DNA of 64,000 nt from Chiloscyllium plagiosum (lineage: Eukaryota), in contig NC_057717.1 in the NCBI RefSeq assembly GCF_004010195.1, positions 106,059,548 through 106,123,547 of the forward strand, written 5' to 3'. Below, piece after piece: positions 303 through 50,799 of this stretch. Within the stretch, counting starts at the first letter, position 1, and every line of letters begins with the position of its first letter. The position numbers and the translations under genes are program-made. A model generated the notes under the pieces. The model did not search any database and was not told the origin of the DNA. It was given only the letters and a program-made list of their open reading frames with translations.

Positions 303-3300
303 CTAAGCATAAAGGAAAACAGACTCCATTACCCCATAGCTTCTCTTCTTTCCCATTTTTTTCCTAGGTTCCTTGAACTGTTACCAATCATTGAATTAAT
401 CTGCATTAAAGGATGCCATTTGGCCCATTGTCAAAGAGCTATCTGATTAGTCTCACTACCCTGTTCTTTCCCCAAAGCTCAGCAGATGCTTCCTCTTTAA
501 GTATTTATCCAACTTACATAAAAAGTCTGTTTTGAATCTGTTTCCAGTGCCATTCTAGCTCTTCATTATCCTCTACCCTTCCCTTGTCCAATGGACAACA
601 GACAAGTAATGATCAGGGGCAGGAACTCTTTCTGTTATAGAAAGCAGCAACAATTGTCCCTCTCGAGATCAGGTTTCTGGGCTGTGGCAGTTTGGACACC
701 ATCATGTCATGCCATGTGACAGCCAAAACATTAAGCTCTCAAGGAAACTACATTAACCCCACGTAAAAATTAATGAGTAAATAATTACATTTCTATAATT
801 TTTGTCATTTTACTCAATCTCTTGGGAAAGTGGACTCACATTTAACATTAATATGTAGGAAAGAATTTATGGTTGAACACTCCGCCCCATCATATCCTTT
901 CTTGTTTCTTTCTATTTTAACATCGGGCCTCTGGCCAATAACCTCTGAATGTTCCTACAGTAACACTAATGCAAGTTTACATTTAAACAGCGCCTGGCTG
1001 TTAACTGTCAATCTTGCCATGTAATTAGCACTGTAAATGAAGTGTACATTTTCCTCCAGAATTTATATTCTTGGCAGTTGTCCTAATGAGTTCAAAACGG
1101 AAAGCTTTGTCAAAATGTATCTTTCCTCAACAACAATCTTTCCTCTGTACAATCAAATGATAACTGTACATTCAAATTAATTTCATTCTCTCTCTAATTA
1201 TTTGCTGTCTCACAATAAGATTTATATGCCCCTTCCTGATATCTTCAAAGTCCTCAGAGTAAAGGTAAAAATTGCTGTTTCCAACAATTGGTGAGTTTGG
1301 GAAAGATGCCTCCATATTGAACATTGAGTCTTCAAGTCTAAGTTGACAGGGTACAGGTGGAAGAGATGGAGTTGGGTCTGAGTGAGTGTGGACACTCACA
1401 GAGTTAAATTTAAGAGCATCCTGATAGCTTCCAAAGATTGCAGCCTGTGCCCTGAGAAAGGCTCTTGCCACCACATCGCCAGTAACTGCGGACTGCTTCT
1501 TCAACTTCATTTTCAGAACGGACACCTGAAACAAACAAAACCTCAGAGGTCAGAGGTCATCGAGGGCAGCCATCAACACTTCCCATTTAAACTCTCACCT
1601 CCTCCCAATTCTTCTCCAGAGATGAATTACTCTTGGCTGAAATCTTAGCCTTTAACCTGCCCTTTTCAGAATCATGGAATGTGGGCATCTCTGATGAGGC
1701 CAGCATTTATTCACCATCCCCAAAGATCCAGAGGACAGTTCAGAATCAGTTATACTGTTGTAGGTCTGGATCACATGTTGGCCAGATTAGGTAAGGAAAG
1801 CAGATTTCCTTTCCGAAAGGACAGTAGTGACCCAGATGGATTTTTGTGACATTGACATTTGTTAGATGGTTGTCGTTAGAAGAGGTTTTCAAATTCCATT
1901 CTTGATAACATTGATTTCAAATTTCACCATCTGCCATGATTGAATTCAAATATATGACCCAGAACATTAGCCTGGTGTTCAGGTTTACTTGTTCAGTGAG
2001 ATTACCATTACCCCACCACCTCCCTCCTTGTAGCCACAGTATTTATATGATTGGTTCAATTCAGTTTCTCGTCAATGGCAACCTCAGGCTGCTGATAGTG
2101 GGGTATTCAATGACGTAAAATCATTGAACATCAAGGAGTGGGCTGCTTGAGTATCAGAGGAGTCATGATTGGTGCTGAATATTGTACAATCATCAATTAA
2201 TATTCTCATTCTGTCCCAATGATGGACGGAAGGTCACTGATGGAACAGCTGAAGATGGTTGGGTAGAGCATTACGTTGAGGAACTCTTGAAGTTACAATC
2301 TGGGATTGAGATGACTGACTTTCAACAACAATCATCTAGTTTTAGTGTGCAAGGAAGGAAGGGAGCAAATTTCTTTTATGTCTGCAAATGCTATAGCCTT
2401 ATCTTTTAAAACTGGTGTGCTGGGCTCTCCCATTGTTGAGGATGGGGGCATTTATAGAGTTTTCTTTCTATGTTGGTTGTTTAATTATCCACACAGAGAG
2501 AGTGAAGACTGCAGATGCTGGTGAGACAGAGTTGATAAGTGTGGCGCTGGAAAAGCACAACAGGTCAGGCAGCATCTGAGGAGCAGGAGAGTCGATGTTT
2601 CGGGCATAAGCCCTTCATCAGGAATGTTTAATTATCCACCACCATTCATAACTAGATGTGACAGGACTGCAGAGCTGATATGTGATATGTTGATTGTATC
2701 TATCCCTTGTTACTTCTACAATTTGGCATGCAAGTAATCCTGTTTTATTGTTTCACCAGGTTGACACCCATTTTCAGTTCCAGCCAGTGCTGTTCCGGCA
2801 TGGTCTCCTATCCTTTTCATTAAACTTGGGTTGATCCAGCCTTGATAGTAATAATAGAGTGGGAGATATACCAGACTGTAAGGTAACAGAAAGTGGCTGA
2901 ATACACTTCTGCTGCTACTGACGGTCCACAATGCCTCATTGATATTCAGTGTTGAATTGCCAGATCTGTTTGAATCCATTCAACATGTCCTCCCTGGAGT
3001 GTTGGAGGCTGAGGGGTGACCTTATAGAGATTTATAAAATCATGAGGAGCATAGCTGGGGTAAATAGACAAGGTCTTTTCCCCTGGGTTGGGGGTATCCA
3101 GAATTGGGGGCATAGGTTTAAGGTGAGAGGGGAAAGATTTAAAAGGAACCTAAGGGGCAACGTTTTCATGCAGAGGGTGGTCTGTGTATGGAATGAGCTG
3201 CCACAGGAAGTGGTGGAGGCTGGTACAATTACAACATTTAAAAGGCATCTGGATGGGTATATGAAAAGGAAGAGTTTAGAGGGATATGGGTCGAGTGCTT

Positions 3301-6300
3301 GCAAATGGGACTAGATTAATTTAGAAAATCTGGTCGGCATGGATGAGTAGGACCGAAGGGTCTGTTTCCGTGTTGTATATCTCTATGACTCTATAACTAC
3401 ACAAGATGATAAGAGTATCCTCAAAATGAAGCTGCACTTTGTCTCCACATGGAGTGTACCGATCACTCTTGCTATAATGGATATGTGTATCTGTGCTAGG
3501 GAGACTGGTGAGACTGAGGTCACATCTGGTTTTCCCTCTTGTTGGTTCCTTTACAACCTGTTGTAGATTCAGCCTGGTAGCAATTTCCTTTAGAACTCAA
3601 CCAGTTCAGTCCATAGTAGTGCTGGCAAGTCACTCTTAGTAGTGGACATTGAAGTCCTCCACCTAGAGTACATTCGAGCCACCTCCGGTCCCAATCCAAG
3701 TGACGTTCAACATGGAATGGAACTGACTGATCAGCCGGGGGTGGGGAACAAGTAGTGAGAGGCTAGATGACAAGCAAGAGATTGGTTTGAGTTATAGAGA
3801 AAGGCTGGATAGACTGAGACTTTTTTCACTGATGTGTAGGAGGTTGAGAGATGGCTTTATCAAAGTCTATAAAATAATGAGGGATATAGATAGAGTTAAT
3901 GTTAGGGTGTCTTTTCCCTAGGATGTGGCATTTCAAAGCAAGGGGCACATTTTTACGGTGAGAGGAGAAAGACTTAAAAAAGACGTGGGGGCAAATATGC
4001 GTCCATGACTTAATGCAATGTGACCTCATGAGGTCTGGTGTCAATGTGGAAGATTCCTAGAGGAACTCCTTCCTTCCCATATACTACTCTGCTGTCACCT
4101 GGGCTGGGGCTATCCTGGCAGTGGGACAGACAATATTCAGAGATAGTGATGGTGGTATCTGAGACATTATGTATAAGATCTGATTCTGTACGTAACTATG
4201 TCAGATTGTTGCTTGACTGCTCTGTCAGATTGAGCTCTCCCACATTTGGCACTAGACTCCAGCTACATTCCCTCTAATTTTGGTTTCTTCTGCAGGTATG
4301 CAGCAGGGATTTCTGAAATGAGAAGCCAACGCTCGGAATGGCATCAGAATGCTGATTGGCATTGCATAGGCCTTCAAAGCAGCGTCTGTGCAGCCTAGAC
4401 AGAACATAGGTCCCCACACATTAGCAAAGAGGACTTGACAGTGTTGATCAGACAGTGTTTGCCCTTGTTGTATCTGCTGAAAATGTGTTGCTGGAAAAGC
4501 GCAGCAGGTCAGGCAGCATCCAAGGAACAGGAGAATCGACGTTTCGGGCATAAGCCCTTCTTCAGGAATGAGGAAAGCCCTCATTCCTGAATAAGGGCTT
4601 ATGCCCGAAACGTCGATTCTCCTGTTCCTTGGATGCTGCCTGACCTGCTGCGCTTTTCCAGCAACACATTTTCAGCTCTGATTTCCAGCATCTGCAGCCC
4701 TCACTTTCTCTCTTGTTGTATCTGCTGCCTGGGTGGTCGAAGCGGTAAGGTTTACTCGTTTTCATTTTTAGAATTCAAAGCAATTTAATGTAACTGCGTG
4801 GTTTGCTCGGCCAAATCAAAGACCATTAAGAATTAATCACTTCACTGTGGGTCTGAAGTTACATGCAGATTGAGTGAGATCAGCAAACCGAGTTTCCTAT
4901 ATTAAAAATCACACAACACCAGGTTATAGTCCAACAGGTTTAATTGGAAGCACACTAGCTTTCGGAGCGACGCTCCTTCATCGACACCTCCAAATCATAG
5001 TTCCCTATGGATCGTAGTGATCTAAATGAGTTTTTATGACAACTGACAATAGTTTTACGATCACTGTAGTCTTCAATTCTAAGTCTGTTACCTGAATTCA
5101 GATTTCACCAGCTGGTGTGAAGGAACTTCTGTGCCCAGGGTTTAGCATAACCTCTGGATTACTAATTCAATAACAAGACTGCCATACTGCTAACTCCCTT
5201 CAGTCACTCTCATTTGCAGTGGAATGTCATGGCTTACTTTGTCACTGTGAACTCACCACATCTGGCGGCAACTTATCCAGATCATTGAATGGCGATTCCA
5301 GTGTATTTGAGTCAACATTTAATATAACCACATCCTCCAGCGCTCTGCTTCTGACTTTCTGCAAAAGAAAGGGATATCTGAAGGAACAAACTTTCATTTC
5401 TCTCATTCGCATTTACTTTGGGAAAGATAGGGATCTGGGATAAAGTTAGGACTGCTGATGCTGGAGATCAGAGTCAAAAAGTGTGGTGCTGGAAAAACAC
5501 AGCCGATCAGGCAGCATCCGAGAAGCAGGAGAGTCGACATTTTGAGCATAAGCCCTTCATCAGGAATGTCTCAGAGTAAACCCATTCAGCAGTGCTACAT
5601 TCACTGTCTTCTCCACAGTCAGTTCTGATACTTCAGTCTGTGTGACCATACCCAATAGACCATTCCCTAACCCTCATATCAATGAGACTCGTGACTGGAA
5701 AACCAATTGTGATAGATTGGGAAATGTTCAGTGTCTTGTCACCTCAAAACACCTCAAAAATGCTTCATTCTGTTATTTGGATTTTGAAATTCAGTGACTA
5801 TTATTATGTAACTTGGTGTGGTGGCCATAATATATACTGAATGGTTCTGAAAACAGGTTATGTTTTGGGTGGAGGTTTATTGGATCAGATACTGGGAGAA
5901 TTTGTTACTCTATTGTGAAGTACCATAAGATCTTTAATATCTGTCTGAACCACTCGATTGCATTCTGAATTTCTGGAATGTGGTTTGAACTCACAATCTT
6001 GTCCTTCTGTTATTGTTTCTTCTGAACACTATTCTGCATGTATCTATTCTATCTGGACTTTTATCCTGTTGCAACAGTGGGAGAAAGCAAAGCAAGTGTC
6101 AGGATAAGGAATGTGTTTCTACAGGAGATGACAGAGACATTGAAGAGCTACCAAAGGTCAAAGTTTGTTCCTTGGCTGTGGTCAGAATATGGAGCTTGGT
6201 GGGAAAAAAGAAACAAACTTTGAGGAATGGCATTTGTCAGCACTACTGAAGAATGAGATAGTGAAACACACTGACCCACTCACCTCCATCAAGCTTGAGT

Positions 6301-9300: not shown

Positions 9301-12300
9301 TGCTCAGTGTTTGTTGCAATGAGATTAATTTTCAGGAATGTAGTTCCCACAAGGCATTAATGAGAGTAATGAGGCAGTTAACAGAGGTGCAAGGCAAAAG
9401 GATGCTTAATAATGCTGGAGACTGACATCTTCCCCCTCCTGGTTCCTCCCCTCTCCTTCTCTTCTCTCTCCCCATGTCTCCTGTATCCCTTCTCCCCCTT
9501 TTCTCCCATCCCATTTTAATCCATCCCCCACCCACCTTGAAAGGGAGCCTACAGCAGCAGTTTAATCAGGCGATGGAGACAATGGTCAGGCCTAAAGGAC
9601 CTGATGTTCCAGCAATGATTTACTGTTTCCCAATAAGAAATGTCCCAATGTCTTTCTGAAACCTGGTTACAGCTAATATTGCCAACACTGGGACTCATGC
9701 CTCCCTGCAACAGAGGCTGATTCATAGCCTTCAGGCTGTCAACTTCCCTTCTCCAAGGAAGAAATATCAGACTGAACAATAGGTTAACCATGATGATTGA
9801 TCTGTAAGGGAGATGGAGTGCAACCTGTGGGATACCTGGAGGGGAAAGTATCCAATGGTTGCCTCACACAGTCCGAAACGGACTGCTCTGTCCTGGATGG
9901 CCTGTTGCTCCCAAGCTGAGCCAGAGAGAACATGGTCTCTCTTTCACATCTCCCATCTAGATAGCCCCCTTAGGATCTCTGCCTCAGAATCTCCACCCTC
10001 AGGGGCTCCCTTTCAGGTTCTCCACCTCAGGATCTCCCCATCAAGAGCTCCCCATCAGGAGCTCCCCTTCAGGATCTCCATCGGGGTCTCTACCATGCAA
10101 ACTGACTCTATAGTTACCAGGCTTCTATCCTTTGAATTATAAAGACTGAATTGTAGAGTTATATTTGCAAACTAGGAAACCATTGTTAACAAAAGAAAGA
10201 TTGACAATCTGCACAATTAGAGTACGTTAGCCTGCAGACAGCACATTTTTTACACAATAGGAGCACAAGTTGCTAGTTAAGTTGGCCAGCATGCATGGGG
10301 TGCTGCTTGAGGTAAATTAGATTGAAGTTAGGTGCTGTTTGGGTTAATCTGGTCAATTCCAGTATAGTGGCTTTGGTTATCGGGTTTCACCCGACTCACC
10401 GATAGCATACCACTACTAGGATCCCTCTTCTGATCTTTCAGAAACCGTCCTGTTGTAACTCCCAGCTTCTGGGCCTTGTGAAACAGTATTATGTATTATT
10501 TTTCATTCTAAAATATCACATTACAATGTACACACTACCAACTTTATGTTAAACAAAATGCTGCACTTGCTGAGGTGAGCTACAGATCAGTAGGCAGTGC
10601 TCTCACTGAGTCAGAACCTGGGAGCCCTTGTCCCACTCCATAGATATCAGCACATAATCCAGGCAGACACTCTGAGTGCAGTGCTGAGGAAAGGCTGTAT
10701 TGTCAGAGGCACTGTCTTCCAGATCAGACTGCTGGCCTCTTGGGTGTATATAATTCCATGGCATTCTTTCAAAGAAGAGCTGAGGAGTTCTCTTCAGTGC
10801 CCTGGTCAATAATTAACCAACCAGCATTTCAAAAGCAGATCATCTCATCATTGTCACATTGCTGTTTGTGGGAGCTGTTGCTCTGAAAATTGGCTGTTGT
10901 GTTTCTCGAATTACGACAGCAACTACTCTTTGAAGGTACTTTATATCACAAAACATTCCTGAAGAAGGGCTCATGCCCGAAACGTCGATTCTCCTGCTCC
11001 TTGGATGCTGCCTGACCTGCTGCGCTTTTCCAGCAACACATTTTCAGCTCTGATCTCCAGCATCTGCAGCCCTCACTTTCTCCATCACAAAACATTATCA
11101 ACCTGAAATATTCACTCTGTTGACCCTATTTCAATCTGGATTGTAAATAACTTATGGCTATGTTTATAAATCGGGCAGATGTATTTTCCAAAGAAAGTAA
11201 ATGGCCAATTTTAGATGCTCCCCACCTAGAATTACTAAAACCACCCATTGTACTGTACCCTAGTTTATCTCAGGGATTTATGGCAGTTTTGCTGGTTTGT
11301 TTGACTATAGAAAAAGATTTAAAAAGTACATGAGGAGCAGTTTTTTTACAGAGAGAGTGTTTCATGTGTGGAATGAACTGCAGAGGACGTAGTGGTTGCA
11401 GGTACAGTTACAACATTTAAAAGACATTTGGATAAGTCCATGAATAGGGAAGGTTTGGAGGGACAAGAGCTAGGAGTAGGCAGGTGGGACTGGTTTAGTT
11501 TGAGAATATGTTCTGCATGGACTAATTGGACCGAAGAGTCTGTTTCCATACTGTATGACTCTATGACTCTATCCAAAGATGGTATACTGACCAAGTCATA
11601 ATTCCTATTAATCGAAGGTATACAAAATGAACATCGCTTTGCTTTTTTAACAGGCCTATAGTGCACAGTCCAGAAAGTGGGAATGGGGACAGTATGAAAC
11701 GATTGTAGATGTCCTGAGGTTGTGAAAGATGCTAAATAAATGGAGTCTCTTTCGTCTTTTTAACTTACAAGTTCAAGTTTGAGTGGAGAGTCTGGTTGGG
11801 GAGGTGGGTGAATATACAGGATTCTTAAGAGTTCTTTCACTTCATTGTCCTGCAGAAATGAAAACAAAACTTATTATAACACACAAAGAGGTGGCCAGTG
11901 CACTGAGGCAAAGGAGCAAACTCTCAAAAACGTCAGCACGTGGTAAGGTTGGAAGCGTTCTAAAGGGAAGGGGTACAGGTTGGGTGAATTTCCATCATAT
12001 TAGGAGTTTGATTTATTGTTGTCACATGTACCAAGATACGTTGAAAGGTGTTTTGTGTGGTTTACAGGCACATCATACCATACAAAGTGCATCAGGGTAG
12101 CAGAACTCAAAATTCAAACAAACTCACATTAACATGTGTGATACAGTAGATTGACTGAGGTTATAATTTTACACATTGTGATATTTACCTGTCCTTTTGC
12201 CAGGCAGTCAGCGATATTGTTTAGGAGCTTGTAGAAAACTTCAAACCAGGGCAAGAAACTAGAAAATAAATGGAGCAATGAATAAAAGGTTGCAAGGACC

Positions 12301-36300: not shown

Positions 36301-39300
36301 GAGTCCTGGTGGGACCGCACCTGGAATATTGTGTGCAATTTTGGTCTCCAAATTTGAGTAAAGACATTCTTGGCTATTGATGGAGTGCAGTGTAGGTTCA
36401 CGAGGTCAATTCCCAGAATGGTGGGACTATCTTACGCTGAAAGATTGGAGCATCTGGGCTTGTATACCCTTGAGTTTGGAACGCTGAGAGGGGATCTGAT
36501 TGAGACGTATAAGATTATTAAAGGATTGGACACTCTGGAGGCAGGAAGCATGTTTCCGCTGATGGGTGAGTGCCGAACCAGAGGACACAGTTTAAAAATA
36601 AGGGTAGGCCACTTAGAACAGAGTTGAGGAGAAACTTCTTCACCCAGAGAGTGGTGGGTGTTTGAAATGCTCTGCCCCAGAAGGCTGTGGAGGCCAAGTC
36701 TCTGGATACTTTCAAGAAAGAGTTGGATAGAGCTCTCAAGGATAGTGGAATCAAGGGTTATGGGGATAAGGCAGGAACAGGATACTGATTGAGGATGATC
36801 AGCCATGATCATAATGAATGGTGGTGCTGGCTTGAAGGGCAGAATGGCCTACTCCTGCACCTATTGTCTATTGTCTATTGAAATGGGATTAGCGTGGACC
36901 GACATTTTGGTCAGCTTGGACCAGTTTGAGCCAAAGGGCCTGTCTCTGTGCTGTAAGACTCTATGACTATGACTCTGCAATACATTATTCCAAAAATGTG
37001 TGCTGTCACACTGACTTTCACATGTGGAAGACACTGCTGTACATGGACCTCAGAGCTATTCTTTCTCAAAGAGTCTCCACTTCCTCATCAGAGCTCCATT
37101 TGTAATAGGTGAAAGTGAGGATTGCAGATGCTGAAATTCAGAGTTAAGAGTGTGGTGCTGGAAAAGCACAGCAGGAGCTCCTGATGAAGGCCTTATGCCC
37201 AAAACGTCAATTCGCCTGCTCCTCGGATGCTGCCTGACCTTCTGTGCTTTTCCATCACCACACTTTCAATTCCATTTTTAATAGCACTCTAGAACTTCAT
37301 TAGCTTTAGCATCAGTATGAGCTATCCGTGCTAACTTAAAATGTAACTCCAGATCTCAGACTCAGTTAATGAAGAACACTTTCACTGCTGAACACTTCCT
37401 TTGAATTATCTCCATCTCTCAGGATGGTTGTGGCTTCTCTAATTTCCACTTGTGTTATTACTGTGAGCTCTGGTGATGGACTTTCTTTAATAATTGCTCT
37501 GGTCACTACAACAATAGTCAAATACCTGGAACCTGTTCCTGTAACTGTTCTGTCTCTTTAACCTCAGACTTTCCATGATAATGAGTGGAGCTACATCCTT
37601 TGCCTAGTCAAATAATTACCATGGAACAAGTCAACTCTGTCCATGAATGGTTTTTTAACAACTCTGCACAAATTGCACTGATTTATACAATGGAACTAGA
37701 ACTTACTCTCCACTTTGACTTTCCTTTCACTGTCTCAAGGAAAAAGTATATCCTTCTCCACCAAAGCCATTTCAGCAGCCTCTGTCTCCCTTAGTACAGT
37801 TACAGGTTTGGTTATATTGTTTTGACAAAAAATCTTTATTTTTTTTTTTACTTTATTCATTCCTCCTGTACTCACAGCAGTATTTACTTCCAGTGTTATG
37901 CTGTAACCAAAGCTACAGTTTAATCGATGGTATTTTCCTTTTGAGTTCTCTTTCTGGACTCACTCTTGTGAACCCCAGTAAGTCTCATGGGCTGTTAGCG
38001 TTCTGAAGTAAAGAATCCCAATTTATTAAAATTGAATTAACACTTACGCCTTCAATTTTTACCTCCACACTTCATTTCCATAAGACAATAAGACACAGGA
38101 GCAGAATTAGGTCATTCAGCCCATCGGGACTGCTCTGCCATTTGATCATGGGTGATCTGTTTCTCAACCCCATCCTCCTGCCTCCTACCTGTAACCTTTG
38201 ATCCCCTGACCAATCAACAGCCTATCTAACTCTGACTTCAATACACTCAATGGCGTTGGCCTCCACAAACCTCTGCGGCAAAAGCTGCACAGATTAACTA
38301 CCCCCTGGTTGAAGAAATTCTTCCTCATCTCTTCTCTAAAGAGTCATTCCTTTTCACTCTGAGGTTGTTCCCTCAGGTCCTAGTCGCTCCTACTAGTGGA
38401 AATATCTTCTCCAAATCCACTATACTGAGGCCTCTCAGTATTTTGATCTGGTCTTTCTGACCTGAGGAGGACCTCTTGGCCATACCCAACTGTCCTTTCT
38501 TTACCGTGGGGTATTTGCCTTCCTTTCACTTTCCCATCCTCTGTCCTTCTCAAGTTTAGGGGGTGACAGAAGAAAACAAGTCTCGTTTTACATATCGGAT
38601 CATAATCATCAGCCATTACTGCTGCCTCTTTAGCAGCTGCAATTCTTCAGCCTTCAGCATGGCTTCTTATTAAAAAAGCTAGCGAGTTCTAAATTCTTCC
38701 AAGAGAAGGGTCTTTCTGAGAGCTTTAAACGTGGTTACAACTCCTGATGCTCATATCTAACTGTCAATATTGCTTGTTTAATCCTTTCAAATTCAATGTA
38801 AATTTCCTTAAATTTCCAAGCTTTTGCCTGTATGCTCCTGGTACTAATTCACATGCATCCAGAATACCATCATAATCCTTAAGAACCCACTCTCATAATG
38901 CAGCATACCTTCCCTGTGGTCCTCTATATGTCAGTTTGCTCTGTGTGGGCAATACCTAGTTTAATCTGGTTTGCCTTTTCTCAAATGCCTCCATATTCTT
39001 TTCCTCAAATCTTGGTAGGGCCTTTACAAACTGAAACATTTCCTTACTGGACTCTAAGATTATGATAGGAATTTCCCTATAACTTTGGCTTCAGGGGACT
39101 CCTTTCTTAACTACTTCATTCTAACAGATTTATTTGAAATCAAAAGCTTTTGGAGAGCTGCTCTCTGTCAGGTGCAGTGTGCCAAAAACTTGTGATTACA
39201 AATAAACCTGTTGGACTATAACCTGGTGCCATGTGACTTCTGACTTTGTCTACCCCAGTCCAACACCGGCATCTCCACATCATGCTTCATTCTCAGCTTT

Positions 39301-45300: not shown

Positions 45301-47284
45301 ATAGAGTGAACAGCAGAAATGGCTGTCACTTGGGGGTGTAATTTTAAGGTGATTGGAGGAAGGTTTAGGGGAGATGTCAGAGGTCAGTTATTTATAAAGA
45401 GAGTGGTGGGAGTGCATGAAATGCACTGCCAGTAGTGATAGTAGAGTCAGATACATCTAAGTGACTCTTGGATAGGCACATGGAAGGTAGTACAATGAAA
45501 GGGTATGTAGGTTAGTTGATCTTAGATTAGGATAAAAGGTCGGCATAACATTGAGGGCCGATGGGTCAGTGCTGTGCTGCACTGTTCTATGTTCTATATG
45601 TACTTTTATTTGAAATATACAGTGAAACGTTTTATAAGTCACCACACCACGGCACTTATATTAATGACAGAAGTTATATATAATAAATTGGTAAATTCAC
45701 ACAAATCTCAAGGACAACAAACAATATGGAGATGGACAGGGTGCTTGAGTCCTGGATGGACAGGAGGAGGGAGTATTTGATCGCTTTGTTGTAATGTGTA
45801 ATTGTATTGTGCACCATGTCTTTTAGCTCTTAATGTAACTGTTTTGTTTGCTTAGTTTAGTGTTGTTACTCAACACTAGTTGTGAGCTGCAGTACTGTAC
45901 CAAAACTGGTAACTCTGTTTTTAGAAACAACGTTGAAAGAAACACTGAAACCATAACTCAACAGAAAGGAAGTATGATCAATATGAAGGAAGAAGGTGGG
46001 GAGATGGATCACTTCTGAAGCCAGCTTAAGCTAAGTCCTAGTGTTAAACCTGTATGATAATAATGACCCACAACAAGGGGGAAGTGGGGATCAATCTGAA
46101 AAAATATTTGTGGAATGGGGCATAAATAGACTAACCAAATCTAATGAGAAACAGTGAGGTTTGCCCTTTATGAAGTAGGAACCATTCAGGGATCACACTC
46201 TGGCCTGGGGGGAGGAGGCCAGACTAGAAGAGACTTGTCTTCAGATTGATCTAATCTGCTCATGATAGTTGATAGTTGCTAATGAGTGGAACAAATGCAC
46301 CATCTGAAATAGAACAGGCATTATTAAGGAACAAGATAATGGAAAATGAAGAAGGATCACTGAACCCAAAACTCAACTCTGCTTTCTCTCCATAGATGCT
46401 GCCAGACCTACTGTGTTTTTCCTTTCGATTTTTGTTTCTGATTTCCGCAGTTCTTCAATGGTTTTTTGGTTCAGTATAAGGGAAAACTTCTCTATGTTTC
46501 TGTTTCCTCTGTTCAGAATCTTTTATTTTCAACCTTTGGAGATTTAGCTGGCTTTTACTGGAGTAATATGACAAATCTCGAGATTATACACAGCAGATAG
46601 ACTGTGCACAAACAGCACCATCGATCTTGGATGGAATAGCTTCTTACAAACTACTCTGTTGAGTGAGTTTAACATCTGCTGTCTGTGCTACTTCAAAGCT
46701 TACTACTTCTGAGAATGACGGTTTTGTTGTTTGAAAAAAAAGCTGTCAGTTTTTTTAGTGTAATCTGTATTGTACATAGAAAATATGATAAATTAAGGGT
46801 GCACAACAAGATGGCAGCAAGAATGATCTGCATCTATCAGTTCACAAACCTTCACAGAAGGTACGAATCTCACACCAACTTCCTTTTCAAGCAACCATTT
46901 TGTCATATTCAATTTCTTGTACAGACTTAATCTCAGGTGTACAGACATTACCATCTCCCAATCCTTGCTCAGCAATTACATTTGTTGGCAAAGGCTAAAG
47001 CATGAGCTTAGAAATATAAAAAAAAACTTTAAAAAATTATTACTTAAATGTACGTCAACAATACAAAACTACCTGTTAACTCAAGCATCAGCTAAACTGT
47101 GGTTTCAGCTCCTTCCTTTCAAACTCTCTACTTGTCTTCAAACACCTAACTGTCACTTCAGCACCAGCTGAGTAGAACAAATTTAGAGAAGGAAAGCATT
47201 CATCAGGCAAATTTTAAAAAATATATCACAGTCCTGTAATCGCATTGGAATTGATTGAGTCTCTTACTTGATTCTGGATCCCAT
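201..47284 (-). CDS. DENND1: DENN domain-containing protein 1 (connecdenn; DENND1B/1C-like Rab35 GEF), spliced, first 15 coding exons; gene continues beyond the window start
   Basis: Fifteen GT-AG exons join in frame to [59 protein letters not shown]...[27 protein letters not shown]...[16 protein letters not shown]...-HLQLFKQ, the recognisable DENND1 uDENN/cDENN/dDENN sequence. Paralog assignment is uncertain. Confidence 0.95.
1400..1525 (-). CDS. DENND1: DENND1 coding exon 14 (126 nt, [42 protein letters not shown])
   Basis: gtttcag|GTG...TCT|gtgagt; [14 protein letters not shown] motif. Confidence 0.95.
2493..2624 (-). mobile_element. Short Penelope-derived hammerhead-bearing element (family A)
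   Basis: 15-bp TSD tgtttaattatccac (2478-2492 / 2625-2639); minus strand reads CTGATGAAGGGCTTATGCCCGAAACATC. Confidence 0.8.
2985..3400 (+). mobile_element. CR1-type LINE 3' fragment
   Basis: [13 protein letters not shown]...GHRFKVRG...WNELP C-terminal motif followed by a (ctatga)-like tail. Confidence 0.85.
4480..4711. mobile_element. Family A element, head-to-head palindrome
   Basis: 16-bp TSD cttgttgtatctgctg (4464-4479 / 4712-4727); two inverted arms with a small central hairpin (aggaatgagg...cctcattcct). Confidence 0.9.
4903..5000 (-). mobile_element. Short Penelope-derived element (family B), partial
   Basis: aaaaatcacacaacaccaggttatagtcc... is also present at 50994; minus strand GATGAAGGAGCGTCGCTCCGAAAGCTA is a truncated hammerhead-like core. 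Confidence 0.7.
5257..5358 (-). CDS. DENND1: DENND1 coding exon 13 (102 nt, [34 protein letters not shown])
   Basis: tttgcag|AAA...GTG|gtgagt. Confidence 0.95.
5440..5568 (-). mobile_element. Family A element, older diverged copy
   Basis: Similar to the other family A copies, with a degenerate core; about 80 nt upstream of the exon 13 acceptor. Confidence 0.75.
6284..6329 (-). CDS. DENND1: DENND1 coding exon 12 (46 nt, [C][15 protein letters not shown])
   Basis: cttccag|T...GAG|gtgagt; APMPY.IG motif. Confidence 0.95.
6473..6573 (-). CDS. DENND1: DENND1 coding exon 11 (101 nt, [33 protein letters not shown])
   Basis: tccacag|TTA...TG|gtaag; cDENN YPMYWQH.YIPVLP motif. Confidence 0.96.
7330..7440 (-). 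CDS. DENND1: DENND1 coding exon 10 (111 nt, [37 protein letters not shown])
   Basis: cttacag|AGG...ACG|gtgagt; lies within ORF 7141..7458. Confidence 0.96.
9175..9228 (-). CDS. DENND1: DENND1 coding exon 9 (54 nt, [18 protein letters not shown])
   Basis: ccttccag|CTT...AGT|gtaagt; SYFIAPD..LPTIPES motif. Confidence 0.95.
9960..10092. repeat. Degenerate ~15-bp tandem repeat (ctcccc(a/t)tcagga(g/t))
   Basis: About 8 imperfect copies seen directly. Confidence 0.6.
10400..10474 (-). CDS. DENND1: DENND1 coding exon 8 (75 nt, [25 protein letters not shown]), probable variable/cassette exon
   Basis: tttcacaag|GCC...TCG|gtgagt; open and phase 0-0, at the position of the extra insert exon I recall in DENND1B/1C (LKDQ motif). 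Confidence 0.7.
10590..10940 (+). mobile_element. Old DeuSINE-like (SacSINE1/AmnSINE-type) SINE
   Basis: Recalled similarity to the Deu domain (gcagtgctgagg...gtcagaggcactgtctt...ccatggca...gaagag) and tail (cattgctgtttgtgggag...aaattggctg). Confidence 0.5.
10958..11083 (+). mobile_element. Family A element with intact hammerhead core
   Basis: 13-bp TSD atcacaaaacatt (10945-10957 / 11084-11096); CTGAAGA-A-GGGC-TCAT-GCCC-GAAAC-GTC. Confidence 0.9.
11305..11572 (+). mobile_element. CR1 LINE 3' fragment
   Basis: TTFKRHLD motif and a (ctatga)n tail. Confidence 0.8.
11769..11849 (-). CDS. DENND1: DENND1 coding exon 7 (81 nt, [27 protein letters not shown])
   Basis: ttctgcag|GAC...CTT|gtaagt; phase 0-0, with size and sequence like the family. 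Confidence 0.9.
12189..12258 (-). CDS. DENND1: DENND1 coding exon 6 (70 nt, [23 protein letters not shown])
   Basis: ttttctag|T...GGACAG|gtaaat; [12 protein letters not shown] motif. Confidence 0.95.
12383..12570 (+). mobile_element. CR1 LINE 3' end fragment
   Basis: Same 3' UTR as the 2985-3400 copy. Confidence 0.8.
12850..14658. repeat. ~31-32-bp C/T-rich minisatellite (cagggacaagtctctcacacccctctctccc and variants), about 1.8 kb
   Basis: Tandem units seen directly; variant heads ggacaagt, ggatgagt, gggtgagt and ggatgtgt. Confidence 0.95.
15473..15592 (-). CDS. DENND1: DENND1 coding exon 5 (120 nt, [39 protein letters not shown][S])
   Basis: ttggcag|G...CTCAG|gtagg; FTFVLTD and RFGFCR DENN motifs. 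Confidence 0.95.
15633..15847. mobile_element. Family A-related element, near-perfect palindrome centred at 15716
   Basis: 16-bp TSD agctcatacagtcagt (15617-15632 / 15848-15863); ...cttcatcaggaat-a-attcctgatgaag...; intact hammerhead core on each strand. Confidence 0.9.
16581..16782. mobile_element. Family A element, head-to-head palindrome
   Basis: 15-bp TSD gtttagcaattacag (16566-16580 / 16783-16797); the inverted arms share the same private variants. Confidence 0.9.
17041..18577 (-). mobile_element. Young 5'-truncated CR1 LINE (RT domain), internally deleted, inserted in an older repeat
   Basis: ORF 17127..18272 has [30 protein letters not shown] and KFADD; (agaacat)n tail at the left end; a jump at [14 protein letters not shown] skips the usual C-terminal segment. 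Confidence 0.93.
19109..19430 (+). mobile_element. HE1-type tRNA-derived V-SINE, full length
   Basis: A box TGGCACAGTGG, B box GGTTCAATTCC, V-domain (gtgtggagtttgcacgttctccccgtgtctgcgtgggtttcc), CR1-like tail and (taatc)n. Confidence 0.9.
19721..19770 (-). CDS. DENND1: DENND1 coding exon 4 (50 nt, [16 protein letters not shown][R])
   Basis: ctcacag|GAATCT...GAAAG|gtaag; uDENN FCFP motif. Confidence 0.95.
19985..20850 (+). mobile_element. CR1 LINE 3' portion
   Basis: [35 protein letters not shown]. Confidence 0.9.
21220..22500 (-). mobile_element. Decayed CR1 LINE 3' portion
   Basis: RPHLEYC and [11 protein letters not shown] motifs; frameshifted RT remnants. Confidence 0.85.
22705..22748 (-). 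CDS. DENND1: DENND1 coding exon 3 (44 nt, [15 protein letters not shown])
   Basis: ctttcag|ACCCT...GACCAG|gtaag; conserved RQFPED motif. Confidence 0.95.
23720..25265 (+). mobile_element. Rex1/Babar-type LINE (RT plus C-terminal domain), 5'-truncated
   Basis: [59 protein letters not shown]; (attca)n tail at ~25244-25265. Confidence 0.85.
25550..26345 (+). mobile_element. CR1 LINE 3' fragment interrupted by a family A element
   Basis: EYCVQFWSP and [14 protein letters not shown] motifs. Confidence 0.85.
25687..25783 (-). mobile_element. Family A element nested in CR1
   Basis: 9-bp TSD gttatacag (25678-25686 / 25784-25792); intact core at 25750-25777 on the minus strand. Confidence 0.88.
28125..29075 (+). 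mobile_element. CR1 LINE 3' portion
   Basis: [29 protein letters not shown]. Confidence 0.88.
29891..29955 (-). CDS. DENND1: DENND1 coding exon 2 (65 nt, [21 protein letters not shown])
   Basis: ttttcag|AGAAAGC...GATGTTG|gtaagt; phases fit both neighbours. Confidence 0.9.
30300..30470 (+). mobile_element. Family B short element, diverged
   Basis: cacCTGATGAaagggctacactccGAAAggttgtg followed by aataagcctgttggactataccctggtg, as in the other family B copies. Confidence 0.65.
30488..31715. repeat. 31-bp minisatellite (gttacatcaattctcagtctggaaggttatg), about 39 copies
   Basis: Tandem units seen directly, with a run of identical units at ~31137-31380. Confidence 0.97.
32230..33398 (+). mobile_element. 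Decayed CR1 LINE (RT to 3' end); its tail resumes at ~36881-36975 after a nested insertion
   Basis: [13 protein letters not shown] and TLKRHLD motifs; the 3' UTR is split at ...ccaagtgcaggg / aaatgggattag... Confidence 0.85.
33399..36880 (+). mobile_element. Long CR1 LINE: ORF1 SGNH/GDSL esterase plus ORF2 APE endonuclease-RT (disrupted)
   Basis: VIGDSIVRG...DGLHLN (esterase); [21 protein letters not shown] and DHN (APE); QHGF, DFQKAFD and KFADDTK (RT); (ctattgt)n tail. Confidence 0.92.
37109..37270. mobile_element. Family A element with partial inverted arm
   Basis: 14-bp TSD with one mismatch, tccattt(g/t)taatag (37095-37108 / 37271-37284); degenerate CTGATGAAGGCC..GCCCAAAAC core. Confidence 0.8.
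38078..38440 (-). mobile_element. CR1 LINE 3' end fragment
   Basis: cataagac tail and the reverse complement of MRKNFF.Q.VV.LW-type sequence. Confidence 0.75.
38450..39720 (-). mobile_element. Highly decayed Gypsy-type gag fragment (coiled-coil plus SCAN-like region)
   Basis: Frameshifted minus-strand peptides [34 protein letters not shown] and EAAVMADDY resemble Gypsy gag; interrupted by a family B copy at ~39130-39283. Confidence 0.5.
39988..41127 (-). mobile_element. Penelope-like element (RT C-terminus plus GIY-YIG endonuclease plus 3' hammerhead)
   Basis: [10 protein letters not shown] and LPFLDV (RT); [27 protein letters not shown] (GIY-YIG). Confidence 0.9.
40056..40095 (-). ncRNA. 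Putative minimal type-I hammerhead ribozyme
   Basis: TCA-CTGATGA-T-GTTACC-TAGTAT-GGTGAT-GAAA-C-GTC-TGA: stem I TCA/TGA, 6-bp stem II with G-U pairs, GUC triplet. Confidence 0.65.
43009..43583 (-). mobile_element. Penelope-like 3' fragment (GIY-YIG plus hammerhead) nested in CR1
   Basis: 10-bp TSD tgtggaggtt (42999-43008 / 43584-43593); [21 protein letters not shown]...REFLEAWHS. Confidence 0.92.
43048..43087 (-). ncRNA. Putative minimal type-I hammerhead ribozyme
   Basis: CCA-CTGAAGA-T-GTTACC-TAGTAG-GGTAAT-GAAA-C-GTC-TGG. Confidence 0.68.
47268..47284 (-). CDS. DENND1: DENND1 coding exon 1 (17 nt, MGSRI[K])
   Basis: acaacATGGGATCCAGAATCAA|gtaagag. Strong Kozak context, and phase 2 fits exon 2. 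Confidence 0.9.
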
Positions 47285-47570
47285 GTTGTCTACATGATCA
47301 GTCTTCCCAGCTGCAAAGAATCCTGGGCTGGATATGGATAAATCATAGAGTTAGGAAGTGGTGGGGATTGTGGGGAAATGGGGGAGGGGAGGGGGGTGTA
47401 AGGGGTGATGGGGTGTCTAGTATTGGATCTAACAGTTTTCTGCCAGCATATAATGCTGCAATCCTTCCGTTACGCTATAGGAAGTACGATGTGTGACGTG
47501 CCACTCAGAGCACAGTCACTCTATAGTGAGACTGCAAGCTCAGTCCACAAGCTGAGATGTAGATTTCTGC

Positions 47571-47702
47571 GGGGAGAAAGTGAGGACTGCAGATGCTGGA
47601 GATCAGAGCTAAAAATGTGTTGCTGGAAAAGCGCAGCAGGTCAGGCAGCATCCAAGGAGCAGGAGAATCGACGTTTCGGGCATAAGCTCTTCTTCAGGAA
47701 TC
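47571..47702 (-). mobile_element. Family A element just upstream of the first coding exon
   Basis: 14-bp TSD atgtagatttctgc (47557-47570 / 47703-47716); one stem II mismatch. Confidence 0.9.
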
Positions 47703-48319
47703 ATGTAGATTTCTGCACCATAATCTCTCTCTACAACAGTCTTCAATATATTCCAATTTTAACAATCATAAAGATATGATAGTGTATGTGATATGGAAAT
47801 GTAAACATGTCCTGAAGAATTTCAAAGTAGGATCACTGCCCAACAGGGGAATGAAAGAAGACGTGAAATCCATCACAGAATTAAAGTTTCAAGTCAGTCG
47901 CACTTTCAGTGGTACAAGTTCAAAAACAAAAGCCAGTCATTTCCTCTTGATTCCTTTTAACCTGGTGCACAGAGGTTTAAAAATTCATCCTCCCTTTCAC
48001 TAAATTCACTGAAATCAAATAGTCATCTATTGAGGGGAATGACCAGCAATTCAGAAAGGATCAGATCTATTTCTATCAGGCACCACCTTAAGAGCAGCAT
48101 GCTGTGAAGTAGGAAACTGGACACCTTTCCACCAGTAATGCCACCGGATAAGTGAGTAGACGCAGGAATAAGAACAAAATATTTTGCTTTTGTAAAAGGA
48201 GGAATGGTGCTGTAACCTGAAGATTCGAAGGAACAAATTTGGAATCTTTCATTAATTTGATTGTGGGCATTTTTGTAAAGGTCGGAAAGGGGATTGTTTG
48301 ACCTTCTCTCCTCTAGTTC

Positions 48320-48636
48320 TCCTCGACAGGGTAAACTTGGGAAGAACGTTCCTCCAACTGGAGAGTCTAAAACCAGGGGTCACAGTTTAAAGATGTACGG
48401 TAAGCCATTTGAGACTGAGATAAGGAGAAATTTCTTCAGCCAGAGAATGGCGAGAATGCTCTGCCACAGAAAGTGGTTGACATTTAATGTTTTCAAGATG
48501 GAGTTAGATATAGTTTTTTGGGCCAAAGGAATAAAGGGTACCGGGCAAAAGTGGGACGAGGGGACTGAGTTGGATGAATAGAGGAGCAGGCTCGAAGGGC
48601 TGAATGGCCCACACCTGCCCCTACTTTCTATTTTTC
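48320..48636 (+). mobile_element. CR1 LINE 3' fragment
   Basis: TRGHSLK...RRNFFSQR motif. Confidence 0.8.
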
Positions 48637-48989
48637 TGTGTGAAAGTAATGACATATTTCTGAGATATGATTCCACAGGGACCCAGCCTCTGGTGGCATT
48701 CAAGACAGCAGTGACATAATAGGCAGTATCTGGGCTCCTTTGCCTGGGGTTCATCCACTCTGTCCACTTTTCTTTTTTTCCTTTTCTTTTTCACTCTTTA
48801 TTTGTGCTTCTACTTACCTGCGATAGAGAGCTCAGTCATGGCGGTACTGGTGGTGACAGCATTGACTAAGAAGGCAGCTTCATTGGGGTCCACAGCGTGT
48901 TGGTGGCTGGTAAGCTAGGAGTGGGACTCTCGCAGCAGCATTGAGGAGGTGAGCACAGAACCCATATCGGCTGCTACATCAGCAGAGGC

Positions 48990-49155
48990 AAAAAAACTGC
49001 AGATGTTGGAATCCAAAGTAGACAGGCAGGAGGCTGGAAGAACACAGCAAGACAGGCATCATCTGGAATTCTGAAGAAGGGTTACACCCAAAACATTGAC
49101 TTCTACACCTCCAGATGCTGCCTGGCTTGCTGTGTTCTTCCAGCCTGCTGCCTGT
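48990..49155. mobile_element. Family A-related element with inverted arms
   Basis: 16-bp TSD ctacatcagcagaggc (48974-48989 / 49156-49171); degenerate CTGAAGAAGGGTTACACCCAAAAC core. Confidence 0.8.
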
Positions 49156-50799
49156 CTACATCAGCAGAGGCGACATCGGTGAGGTAGGGCCAGCAGCGAA
49201 AAATGGCGCCTGAGGAACGGTGACTTCAAAGACAGCTGGCTATGTCCTTTTATATTTTAAATTATTCTTTAACTATTCAAAATGGCACCAGAATCATGGC
49301 GATAGTGGAAACTTTTCCCTGTATTTTGTGGTATTTTTCACTGTAAAATACATGTTACAATAAAATCATTTATACATTCTTCCAGGATCTCACCTTAGTG
49401 GGTCATCTGTATGTACAGACATCAATGTGAGAAGGCCGTTAGATCATGGGAAACTAGCAGGTCAGCTTAATGTTGTCCACAAACTCAAAGCTCAGACGAA
49501 AGTGGTACTGGATTGCAATCAGGCTGGGGGCGATACAGCAATATTCTCCACTTGCCTGGATGGGTGCAGCTCCTACAACATTCAAGAAGCTTAACACCAT
49601 CCAGGACAAAGCAGTAGCTGGATTGGCATCACATCCACAAACACCTAATCCCTTCACCACCGATTCAATAGCAGCATCTACAAGATGCATTACAGTAATT
49701 CACCAAGTACCTTCCAAACCGACAGCCAATTACATCTTGAAGGACGAGTATATGAAACAAGAACAGTAGTAGGTCATTCAGTCCTTTGAGTCTGCTCCAC
49801 CAATCATTTAACTCAGTCCCCTATTCCTCCTTTCTCCCCACTTGATACCTTTAGCTCTAAGAAGTATATCTAACTCCTTTTTGGCATCATTCAATGTTTT
49901 GGCCTCAACTATTTCCTGTGGCCGGGAATTCCACAGGTTCACGCCTCTGTGGGTGAAGACATTTCTCCTCATCTCAGATTTAAATGGCCTACACCATATC
50001 CTTAGATTTGTACCTATCATCACAGTAGAAAGCTCAAGTTGCATACGCAAAATACAGGGTAAATCTCGGTGATGAAAACAAGTAAAAATTAATATCAGTA
50101 AAATAAAAGTATTGGGGAAACCTACAACACAACAAACCACTGGAGCTGTTTGTCTACATCCTCGGATTCTAAAAGAGATATATGGGAACACCGGCCCTCT
50201 GAGCCACTCACTATTCTGATTTGGAAATATATTGCCATTTCTTTCGTGTCACTAGGTCAAAATCCTGGAATTCCCTCCCTAACGGTCTTTAAGGCCTACC
50301 TACAACATATGGACTGCAACGGTTCAAGAAGACAGCTCACTACCATCTTCTCAAGGGCAGCTAGGATTGGGCGATCAATGCTGGCCCAGCCAGCGAGGTG
50401 CACATCGTGTTCTCTAACTGCGGGCACTGAGGAATGTGAACATCACTGGCAATGCTAACATGTAGTGCCCATCCTTAACTGCTAACCGAGGTCAAACCAG
50501 GGTGAAGCAGAGTAGGCTTAGGACTAAGTCAGGAAGCTGCTGCTGTGTGTAACTCAGTCACTTGCAGATTGTATGGAAATCAGATTGTGGGATCATGCTG
50601 ACACCTAGTGCCACAATCTGTATATTAAACAGAAGTGTGAAGGAAAGAAAAACATATTTCAATACATCCTTTTATTATCTCAGGATATCACAAAGCACAT
50701 CATAGTCAATGAGGTATTTTTCCAAAATGCAATCACGGTTGTGACAGAGAATGTATTAAGCTAATTTGCCTACGGTAAATTCCACAAAAAAGGAATTCT

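Follow-up and report, generated by a model that had tools for sequence, protein, structure and literature searches.

Hammerhead-bearing inserts of a 64,000-nucleotide window as probable 3′-terminal modules of endonuclease-bearing Penelope-like elements

What kind of mobile element leaves short inserts that carry a hammerhead motif, are flanked by target-site duplications (TSDs) and recur at ten places within a single window of 64,000 nucleotides (the whole stretch of DNA analysed here)? A sequence-only reading had described these inserts, at ~100–230 bp, as a retrozyme-like, Penelope-derived family, and BLASTN and nhmmer searches using one copy or a profile as query recovered all 10 units, measuring 97–232 bp and comprising 15 arms (five single arms and five head-to-head pairs; Table 1). 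The pairing of five units had not been spelled out in that reading. Three weak module fragments beyond the 10 units were also detected by nhmmer. It is probable that the ten inserts are 3′-terminal modules of endonuclease-bearing Penelope-like elements (PLEs), left by target-primed reverse transcription; they comprise several closely related subfamilies of PLE end modules, and constitute a very abundant example of a kind of element already described, not a new class.

Table 1. Module insertions, their parts and weak fragments in the window
Feature	Positions	Strand	Remarks
Single arm, tailed	2478..2639, insert 2493-2624 (132 bp)	-	Old copy; 88% best identity to pooled copies
TSD of 2493 insert	2478-2492 and 2625-2639		15 bp
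Hammerhead core of 2493 insert	2597-2621	-	
Head-to-head pair	4464..4727, insert 4480-4711 (232 bp)	.	TSD 16 bp; centre of 13 nt, including a few nt of parent UTR per arm (5′ ends -7 and -3)
4480 pair, left arm	4480-4569	-	Without tail
4480 pair, right arm	4583-4711	+	Tailed
Single arm, tailed	5438..5567	-	No TSD detected; core decayed; 87% best identity
Single arm, tailed	10945..11096, insert 10958-11083	+	TSD 13 bp, its final three bases overlapping the element's first three
Hammerhead core of 10958 insert	10959-10983	+	
Head-to-head pair, TTTT-loop subfamily	15617..15863, insert 15633-15847 (215 bp)	.	TSD 16 bp; tail on right arm, none on left arm
15633 pair, hammerhead cores	15687-15711 and 15721-15745	- and +	1 nt apart at centre
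Head-to-head pair	16566..16797, insert 16581-16782 (202 bp)	.	TSD 15 bp; left arm with complete 5′ end, without tail; right arm tailed, 5′-truncated at module position 19
Single arm without tail	25678..25792, insert 25687-25783 (97 bp)	-	TSD 9 bp
Hammerhead core of 25687 insert	25753-25777	-	
Head-to-head pair, old	37095..37284, insert 37109-37270 (162 bp)	.	TSD 14 bp with 1 mismatch; core mutated; left arm tailed, 5′-truncated at position 62; right arm starting at position 3, without tail
Single arm, tailed	47557..47716, insert 47571-47702 (132 bp)	-	TSD 14 bp; one additional G between TSD and element's first base; single change breaks helix II
Head-to-head pair, old	48974..49171, insert 48990-49155 (166 bp)	.	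TSD 16 bp; helix II GGGU/ACCC subfamily; CpGs decayed, core broken
Weak fragment, profile positions 25-93	14785..14852	-	nhmmer E 6e-4
Weak fragment, profile positions 6-104	46347..46446	+	nhmmer E 5e-7
Weak fragment, profile positions 5-83	56105..56188	+	nhmmer E 4e-6

The boundaries of the inserts agree with the earlier account, which had listed nine TSDs of 9–16 bp and no poly(A) tail. A mismatch-tolerant direct-repeat search found duplications at 9/10 units, eight of the nine reaching at least 13 bp and one containing a single mismatch, and found none for the unit at 5438-5567; random placements (n = 300) reach a score of 8 at their 95th percentile. Insert 3′ ends run directly into the TSD, without an intervening run of A. 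In the window and in the genome-wide sample described below, these 3′ ends fall at two sites ~36 nt apart (profile ends ~85–103 or ~121–129), a spacing that constitutes the ‘tail’ signature of PLEs, and a TTCCAGCA octamer recurs ~16–22 nt before each site. When 3′ ends were tallied across all retrieved loci, their distribution was likewise bimodal, these loci not being de-duplicated and including alignment-end artefacts. Tails numbered 80,834 genome-wide; the first 100 listed had no clearly shared continuation downstream of the tail, three of them sharing a motif located in a LINE-like ORF region.

The internal sequence points to the same class of element. PLE minimal hammerheads (min-HHRs) reside in the terminal repeats of metazoan PLEs (Cervera and de la Pena 2014, PMC4209133), and the helix-III-less core noted earlier in the best copies matches every sequence feature of that motif: CUGANGA and GAAA boxes, an unpaired base between 9 and 10.1, a G10.1–C11.1 pair, a short helix I, a helix III consisting only of palindromic ACGU, and, at the genome level, mostly dispersed single motifs and opposite-strand pairs in many sequence families. 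The strict motif CTGAWGA-N-GGGC-N3-6-GCCC-GAAAC occurs exactly seven times in the window vs 0 in 100 dinucleotide shuffles, and core and helix II are intact in 8/15 window arms. The catalytic boxes CUGANGA (C3–A9) and GAA (G12–A14) are present, with GAAACGUC next in intact copies; all seven intact window copies read A9-A-GGGC...GCCC-G12, and ACGU stands directly between GAA and C17 (palindrome at 15.2–16.2), an arrangement implying that the PLE minimal hammerhead would act as a dimer (PMC4209133). The inserts carry, by sequence criteria, a PLE-type minimal hammerhead motif, a predicted ribozyme, with a helix II of 4 bp vs 7–8 in the Schistosoma families (PMC4209133).

Variation within the motif is of limited kinds. 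Loops TTAT, TCAT, TTTT and TAAT do occur over a constant GGGC/GCCC stem, as had been reported, which is loop variation and not covariation. Helix II is invariant within the main subfamilies, the GGGU/ACCC subfamily (850 intact copies genome-wide) represents one double change, and two further window lineages have unrelated helix II sequences, found with a descriptor that itself required pairing; the helix changes (helix II GGGU/ACCC; helix I variants) amount to few independent events. The caution previously voiced over a weak stem I was justified for the AUUC/GAUU helix of 69 pooled copies, and a perfect AUUC/GAAU helix I occurs in 11/11 copies of the CTGT-loop subfamily. Rfam hammerhead models, the proposed means of recognising the motif, gave no match at the gathering score, at E up to 10 across the window or on a 161-nt stretch, possibly because the models require helix III, and the minimum free energy fold of one module was no more stable than its shuffles (z 0.07). 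An ATG in loop II is missing with TTTT and CTGT loops and is not conserved among subfamilies, whereas the Anolis element has a start codon at stem II (PMC11167929).

A Penelope derivation, also proposed previously, is favoured both by the min-HHR features and by upstream sequence that runs in the same sense into an RT-type ORF end. Of 90 sampled arms located by means of an internal 24-mer, 34 (~38%) extend 10 to >400 nt into shared upstream sequence, 39 (~43%) end at the 5′ edge of the hammerhead (-6 to +9 of its first base) and 15 (~17%) stop inside the module. Parent upstream bases are present in 8,600/20,361 and 22,650/47,866 hammerhead-complete copies in two genome-wide counts, a share with parent sequence directly upstream of at least 42–47%. 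Going upstream from the module, long copies have ~150 nt of UTR in common and then, ~300 nt upstream and in the hammerhead's own sense, the ORF end; conversely, 14 of the best 20 ORF-end loci, drawn from 150 scored candidates (150/150 matching), are followed by a same-strand hammerhead ~200 nt further downstream.

The readable portion of this ORF next to the module is its last ~60 codons, the ORF body being N in 13/20 loci; neither a complete RT–GIY-YIG ORF beside the module nor a full-length unit flanked by it on both sides appeared in the readable sequence. The ORF end matches the C-terminus of P0025 at 55% over 42 residues, P0025 being a protein with RVT_1 (E 5.6e-19) and, after it, a weakly scoring GIY-YIG match. 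An exhaustive phmmer search with the ORF end gave 30 matches, mostly short fragments, and some of these lie within chimeric gene models, for example a 7TM receptor. Pfam matched no family on three ORF-end fragments, no longer relative of the ORF end emerged from a word-based protein search, and a whole-genome Pfam GIY-YIG scan returned one weak match, on another (1-kb) contig. Mobilisation by a Penelope RT/GIY-YIG protein, as suggested at the outset, would fit the ORF-end homology to an RVT_1 protein; the GIY-YIG matches in the relatives (16.9 bits, in P0025, and 19.4 bits) fall below the Pfam cut-off of 22.6. On homology of the shared UTR and the RT-type ORF end, the derivation of the short inserts from a putative PLE-type parent holds.

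The proposal of a discrete non-autonomous family fares less evenly, since 5′ ends are in excess at the hammerhead edge but 34/90 arms enter parent sequence. The competing expectation, random 5′ truncation of a long Penelope, was likewise borne out in part, the 90 sampled arms forming a truncation series together with an edge excess. By our arithmetic on these arms, the stopping rate per base at the edge is ~5–7 times that of the flanks, an excess not explained by plain truncation and compatible with a discrete short RNA species.

Inverted pairing is equally characteristic of the module, with 2,845 head-to-head loci vs 24 head-to-tail loci genome-wide and 38/90 sampled arms (~four in ten), having their 5′ end at or inside the module, in head-to-head pairs. 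The 5′ ends of the two arms meet mid-unit and one TSD is shared, arm identity within pairs is 97.4% (median of 41) vs 89.1% for random arms, and exactly one arm bears the ~36-nt tail in 47/50 pairs; tailed and untailed arms stand at 54:46 among 100 single arms, and at least 47/50 one-tail pairs would arise with a probability of ~2e-11 at p=0.5 (our calculation). Central 5′ ends and the almost invariable single tail indicate that each pair arose in a single concerted event and not through two independent insertions side by side. The commonest junctions among the first 50 loci listed join arms that both end at the hammerhead first base or one base before, with AT/AATT microhomology in the commonest.

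These features can be accommodated by a mechanism modelled on published PLE biochemistry. The PLE RT-endonuclease would nick both target strands with a stagger, giving rise to the 9–16-bp TSD, and cDNA synthesis would begin internally on the RNA, at either of two positions ~36 nt apart, yielding a tailed or an untailed copy; copying would then proceed toward the RNA 5′ end and stop at variable points. The cDNA start sites lie ~95–130 nt downstream of the hammerhead motif, which would be carried along by virtue of this position, and copies containing it must stem from uncleaved RNA. Arms that lack upstream parent sequence are, we infer, probably dead on arrival.

An alternative that we regard as unlikely, yet by some distance the most serious of three, treats the 95/130-bp units not as truncation products but as the full length of a discrete non-autonomous mini-element, whose short RNA would start at the hammerhead from its own or a neighbouring promoter and be copied in trans by the PLE protein. 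The clustering of 39/90 sampled arms at the hammerhead edge, where 5/5 single window arms also end, and the position of the commonest head-to-head junctions argue in its favour, as do a match to the initiator consensus YYANWYY that spans the hammerhead first base, and a hexamer TTATCT ~25–31 nt upstream that is common to diverged subfamilies. A unit starting at the hammerhead without upstream sequence, however, could not pass its promoter on; 34/90 arms extend further and 15/90 stop earlier, and the window pair at 4480 holds 3–7 nt of parent UTR centrally. The 1,113 raw RNA reads, from a single-cell polyA library and for that reason a weak test, have no pile-up of ends at the hammerhead first base; in this library 93% of reads continue into unlike sequence and read depth tracks genomic copy number, with both strands present. 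A second raw-read run yielded 0 placed reads.

Preferring the reading as PLE end modules also means setting aside two highly improbable ones, an animal (non-LTR) retrozyme and a fold-back DNA transposon or MITE. Retrozymes are tandem units that are transcribed, cut by the hammerhead, circularised and copied back to DNA, and the type I-like core and missing poly(A) recall them, as does their being non-coding, hammerhead-bearing and PLE-related (Cervera and de la Pena 2020, PMC7229834; Li et al. 2026 preprint); a preprint also ties vertebrate retrozymes to PLE terminal repeats (10.64898/2026.07.22.740005). The same accounts describe tandem arrays, canonical type I hammerheads and circular RNAs (PMC7229834; Li et al. 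2026), whereas the module here is dispersed and head to head: tails number 80,834 and A-type starts 47,866 genome-wide, head-to-tail junctions 24. It has no helix III, no loop–loop contact motif and no Rfam match, and the predicted cleavage site, after H17, coincides with the 5′ start in 1/90 sampled arms. A unit-length circular template is ruled out by the single 5′ start common to short-site and long-site copies, and the retrozyme-like label given earlier is not sustained by either the junction counts or this shared 5′ end. Inverted arms serving as terminal inverted repeats, as a MITE would have them, suit the 5/10 window units that are near-palindromic with flanking TSDs, and Rfam microRNA-like hairpins were matched on two units, far below threshold; yet single arms and pairs with identical ends are equally common, TSDs range in length from 9 to 16 bp, the fixed 36-nt tail makes the arms unequal in 47/50 pairs, and arms run into an RT-type ORF end.

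Within the PLE reading, a joint account of the pairs and of the edge excess may be offered tentatively, as possible if still somewhat doubtful. Within a single PLE complex, each of the two protomers would take a different one of the adjacent start sites, both probably on the same RNA and one per nicked target strand; this would explain the single tail of 47/50 pairs and, as both cDNAs would run to a common RNA 5′ end, their joining through AT/AATT microhomology. The edge excess of 5′ ends would in turn mark the transcription start of a 3′-UTR promoter, from which 5′-truncated copies with at least 35 nt of UTR could fire read-out RNAs that the PLE protein would turn into 95/130-bp stubs; extended copies, if this is true, would be a self-amplifying non-autonomous source of at least 100,000 stubs. 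Both the fold-back and the promoter readings go beyond the PLE literature consulted.

The established part of the anatomy has close counterparts. Endonuclease-bearing (EN+) PLE insertions have an adjacent inverted 5′-truncated copy and a 30–40-bp tail at one end, and the Anolis PLE has two internal RT start sites, with both strands cut and extended (Craig et al. 2021, PMC8557442; Frangieh et al. 2024, PMC11167929). The module shares with these elements variable TSDs, absence of poly(A), 5′ truncation, the inverted partner copy, a ~36-nt tail between two alternative 3′ ends and cDNA start sites ~100 nt downstream of a hammerhead; unlike the canonical EN+ PLE, most copies here consist of the last 95–130 nt only (PMC8557442; PMC11167929). 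The end-stub anatomy quantified here is not described in the main text of PMC4209133. Schistosome Sm-alpha and Sj-alpha SINE-like elements are similarly short, dispersed, hammerhead-bearing retroposons, but have a promoter ahead of a canonical active hammerhead, whereas the motif here is without helix III (PMC6765202).

The module is exceptionally numerous, at least 168,314 copies being found in the 3.56-Gb genome, the strict motif itself occurring at least 79,576 times (reversed control, 0); at ~100 bp per copy this corresponds by our arithmetic to ~17 Mb or 0.5% of the genome, a lower bound. These numbers far exceed the ~4,000 published for coelacanth and the ~9,000 for Xenopus (PMC4209133). 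Near-identical copies, which the sequence-only reading had described as differing at only ~2 positions, include the left arm of the 15633 pair (83/83 nt identical to a copy on contig C1) and the 10958 insert (2 differences/129 nt from a copy on that contig), and the 25687 insert has 1 difference/95 nt. Some window arms have best matches of 97.5–100% to copies on another contig, and old ones 78–89%. On this near-identity, recent activity of the PLE module in the genome, as had been proposed, appears plausible.

So large a set of dated insertions constitutes a natural record of PLE integration, part of a transposition mechanism for which in vitro work has to date concerned one lizard element. 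The insertion patterns provide testable constraints on it: cDNA starts fall into two separate zones, fold-back insertions follow a one-tail rule almost without exception, 5′ ends stop preferentially at the ribozyme edge, and almost no insertions come from ribozyme-cleaved RNA. Genome annotation has to reckon with the head-to-head stubs, whose perfect hairpins resemble microRNA precursors and which can be mistaken for MITEs.

The ten short inserts proposed in the sequence-only reading were recovered, at exactly its coordinates, as ten insertion units by BLASTN with one module copy as query (the module being the ∼95–130-nt hammerhead-bearing 3′-terminal piece) and by an nhmmer profile of 15 natural copies; the units comprise 15 module copies, or arms, alongside three weak fragments. 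The hammerhead motif claimed there, CTGAWGA-N-GGGC-loop-GCCC-GAAAC, occurs seven times in the window and never in 100 dinucleotide shuffles, with core and helix II intact in 8 of the 15 arms. Target-site duplications (TSDs) of 9–16 bp bracket nine of the ten units, as had been described, and reach at least 13 bp in eight of these; the identical procedure at 300 random places gave a 95th percentile score of 8. The reported absence of poly(A) also holds, an A-run terminating none of the ten. Best identities of window arms to copies on another contig span 78% to 100%, so several ages are represented. Rfam scores the centres of two head-to-head pairs as microRNA precursors (mir-680, mir-2007) at 35–36 bits, against gathering scores of 100–104, and such hairpins could mislead miRNA or miniature inverted-repeat (MITE) annotation.

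Positions of insertion units and other features in the window, and of fetched loci in the searched genome (G000, contig C1)
Feature	Position	Strand	Description
Single arms	2493, 5438, 10955, 25687, 47571		five units
Head-to-head pairs	4480, 15633, 16581, 37109, 48990		five units, each pair within one TSD
Pair centres	4529–4623, 15676–15757		sub-threshold microRNA precursor matches
Histone 3′ UTR stem-loop	23482–23528	+	sub-threshold match (25.5 bits, gathering score 34, E 0.007)
LINE-type sequence	25800–25990	+	adjoins insert at 25687; resembles C-terminal part of non-LTR reverse transcriptase ORF, by eye only
Second lineage, copy	39990–40200	-	motif at 40092
Second lineage, copy	42990–43200	-	motif at 43084
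Third minimal hammerhead-like motif	51185–51215	+	helix II GGAGC/GCUCU, palindrome AGCU instead of ACGU
L129	G000:C1:1467479–1468179		head-to-head pair
L130	G000:C1:1469030–1469730		head-to-head pair
L141	G000:C1:1842430–1843130		hammerhead deleted

Across the 3.56-Gb genome, a strict 30-nt motif with all CpGs intact is present 79,576 times (0 in a reversed control) and an internal 24-mer of the module 168,314 times; the tail, an additional ∼36 nt carried by some arms, is represented by 80,834 matches to its final 13 bases (209 in the control), under a pattern covering three quarters of such ends.

A Penelope-derived origin, as first suggested, is supported by long copies, in which ∼150 nt of UTR ahead of the hammerhead is preceded by an ORF end in the same sense. 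First-look screening of the genome with a 62-residue fragment of this ORF end yields 78,479 candidates, of which all 150 scored match; in 14 of the best 20 loci the same strand carries a hammerhead ∼200 nt downstream. The fragment matched no Pfam family, and a word-based protein search found nothing; exhaustive phmmer returned 30 relatives, among them P0025, whose C-terminus is 55% identical over 42 residues and follows RVT_1 (E 5.6e-19) and a GIY-YIG match below cut-off, and P0027, with a GIY-YIG match of 19.4 bits ahead of the aligned part. On these protein alignments the parent looks like a Penelope-like element (PLE), known here from its ORF end rather than from a complete RT-GIY-YIG ORF or full-length unit, the ORF body being N in 13 of 20 loci. 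LINE-type RT ORF fragments adjoin several sampled copies (as at fetched loci L053 and L054), and N runs in fetched loci also span LINE-type ORFs, and are thus not specific to a Penelope-type parent. At a further locus, L141, parent UTR is joined straight to module position 36, with the entire hammerhead deleted.

Many arms in the fetched loci run past the hammerhead into upstream sequence common to copies. Genome-wide, the parent's eight upstream bases accompany at least 8,600 of 20,361 copies with a TTTT helix II loop (42%), and its six upstream bases at least 22,650 of 47,866 hammerhead-complete A-type copies (47%). A sample free of selection for an intact ribozyme, consisting of the first 90 contig C1 matches to the internal 24-mer on the plus strand, was measured against six long copies, all rows being counted: 34 arms extend 10 to >400 nt upstream (12 running into N), 39 have their 5′ end between -6 and +9 relative to the hammerhead's first base (12 are singles and 27 lie in pairs), 15 are cut at +12 to +33, and two are ambiguous (one N from -2, one internal deletion). 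Arms are thus truncated at a series of 5′ positions, with clear over-representation of the ribozyme's 5′ edge: per base, stopping is ∼5–7 times as frequent there as on either flank. A discrete short family, as originally envisaged, accordingly survives in part: the edge excess favours it, whereas the longer parent and the extended and truncated arms do not.

The 3′ ends of arms fall in two zones (profile positions ∼85–103 or ∼121–131) that differ by the tail, each lying ∼16–22 nt behind one copy of an octamer, TTCCAGCA, which is found twice in every subfamily. These zones match the pair of internal sites at which reverse transcription starts in an Anolis PLE; its protein, predicted to dimerise, nicks both strands and extends them (PMC11167929). 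Single arms are tailed in 54 cases and untailed in 46 (n = 100); non-redundant head-to-head pairs (n = 50) combine one tailed and one untailed arm in 47, with no tail in two and two tails in one, where independent choice would leave about half of pairs mixed (P(≥47/50) ∼2e-11 by our arithmetic). Arms within a pair are a median 97.4% alike (41 pairs), against 89.1% for random arms. Head-to-head junctions with both arms complete number 2,845 genome-wide, and among the first 50 loci listed the two ends most often either overlap by AATT or are separated by a single base. Together, the one-tail pattern, within-pair likeness and junctions indicate that a pair is one concerted event, with two cDNAs meeting at their 5′ ends. 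L129 and L130, which count as two of these 50 pairs, are ∼1.5 kb from one another and have the same junctions and ends; they are probably a local segmental duplication of one insertion.

Read in its own sense, a complete arm opens with four bases that supply the 5′ side of helix I; next come the CUGANGA box, a single unpaired A, a helix II of 4 bp whose first pair is G–C, GAA, the palindrome ACGU, and C, the predicted cleavage-site base. These are the features listed for the minimal hammerheads of metazoan PLEs, including a palindromic 15.2–16.2 and the additional base that separates positions 9 and 10.1 (Cervera and de la Pena, PMC4209133). Two results count against a working ribozyme. The Rfam hammerhead models proposed as a check produced no match, whether at gathering score, with E relaxed to 10 across the window, or for a 161-nt stretch. 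Helix I is also weak (AUUC/GAUU with a U–U mismatch) in 69 pooled copies; the early caveat over this stem applies to those copies but not to the CTGT-loop subfamily, with perfect AUUC/GAAU in 11 of 11. The loop of helix II does vary above an unchanged stem, as claimed; covariation is thin, with GGGU/ACCC in 850 intact copies of one subfamily, of which the old pair at 48990 is also a member. Three further window motifs, from two or three other lineages, share this architecture but have helix II sequences unrelated to it; the descriptor required pairing, so that only the excess over shuffles is informative (10 matches versus 0–1 in 20 shuffles).

On the best-supported reading, canonical PLE insertions left the inserts behind as end-stubs and fold-backs, with steps inferred from published PLE biochemistry. 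As the cDNA start lies downstream of the cleavage site, a copy bearing the putative hammerhead implies an uncleaved RNA template; cleaved RNA as a common template would yield arms beginning at the base after GUC, where 1 of 90 sampled arms starts, no more than at neighbouring positions. The retrozyme-like character first attributed to the family fails on tandem arrays, its defining test, with 24 head-to-tail junctions genome-wide against the thousands joined head-to-head, and on the 5′ end common to short and long forms.

In a weaker form of the discrete mini-element, 5′ ends may be so common at the ribozyme's first base because an RNA begins there. The base in question sits within a match to the initiator consensus, a hexamer common to diverged subfamilies lies ∼25–31 nt upstream of it, and PLE terminal repeats are known to hold the promoter (PMC6765202). 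One window pair, however, carries a few UTR bases at its centre, and no RNA support was found in single-cell polyA reads. In the one raw single-cell polyA run with signal, 1,113 reads fall on a long copy, on both strands; 93% continue into unrelated sequence, depth tracks the genomic copy profile, and read ends pile up at no place, which adds little. A second raw-read run gave no reads.

The motif, PLE association, dispersed single copies, opposite-strand pairs, 5′ truncation and tail are already in print; the Chiloscyllium plagiosum genome adds scale, a one-tail rule that is cleanly quantified, a hotspot of 5′ ends, and the observation that insertions from cleaved RNA are lacking. Literature searches on Penelope with shark and hammerhead ribozyme, on Penelope-like hammerheads and on dimer work did not find the family described in the papers they covered.

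The second hammerhead-bearing lineage in the window carries CUGAWGA, an unpaired U, a 6–7-bp helix II of unrelated sequence, and GAAACGUC; its two copies have ∼100 nt upstream and ∼85 nt downstream in common at 83% identity, and one has a canonical TATAAATA ∼47 nt ahead of the core. Sequence ∼40 nt downstream of the third motif reappears directly behind the tails of two genomic main-family copies.
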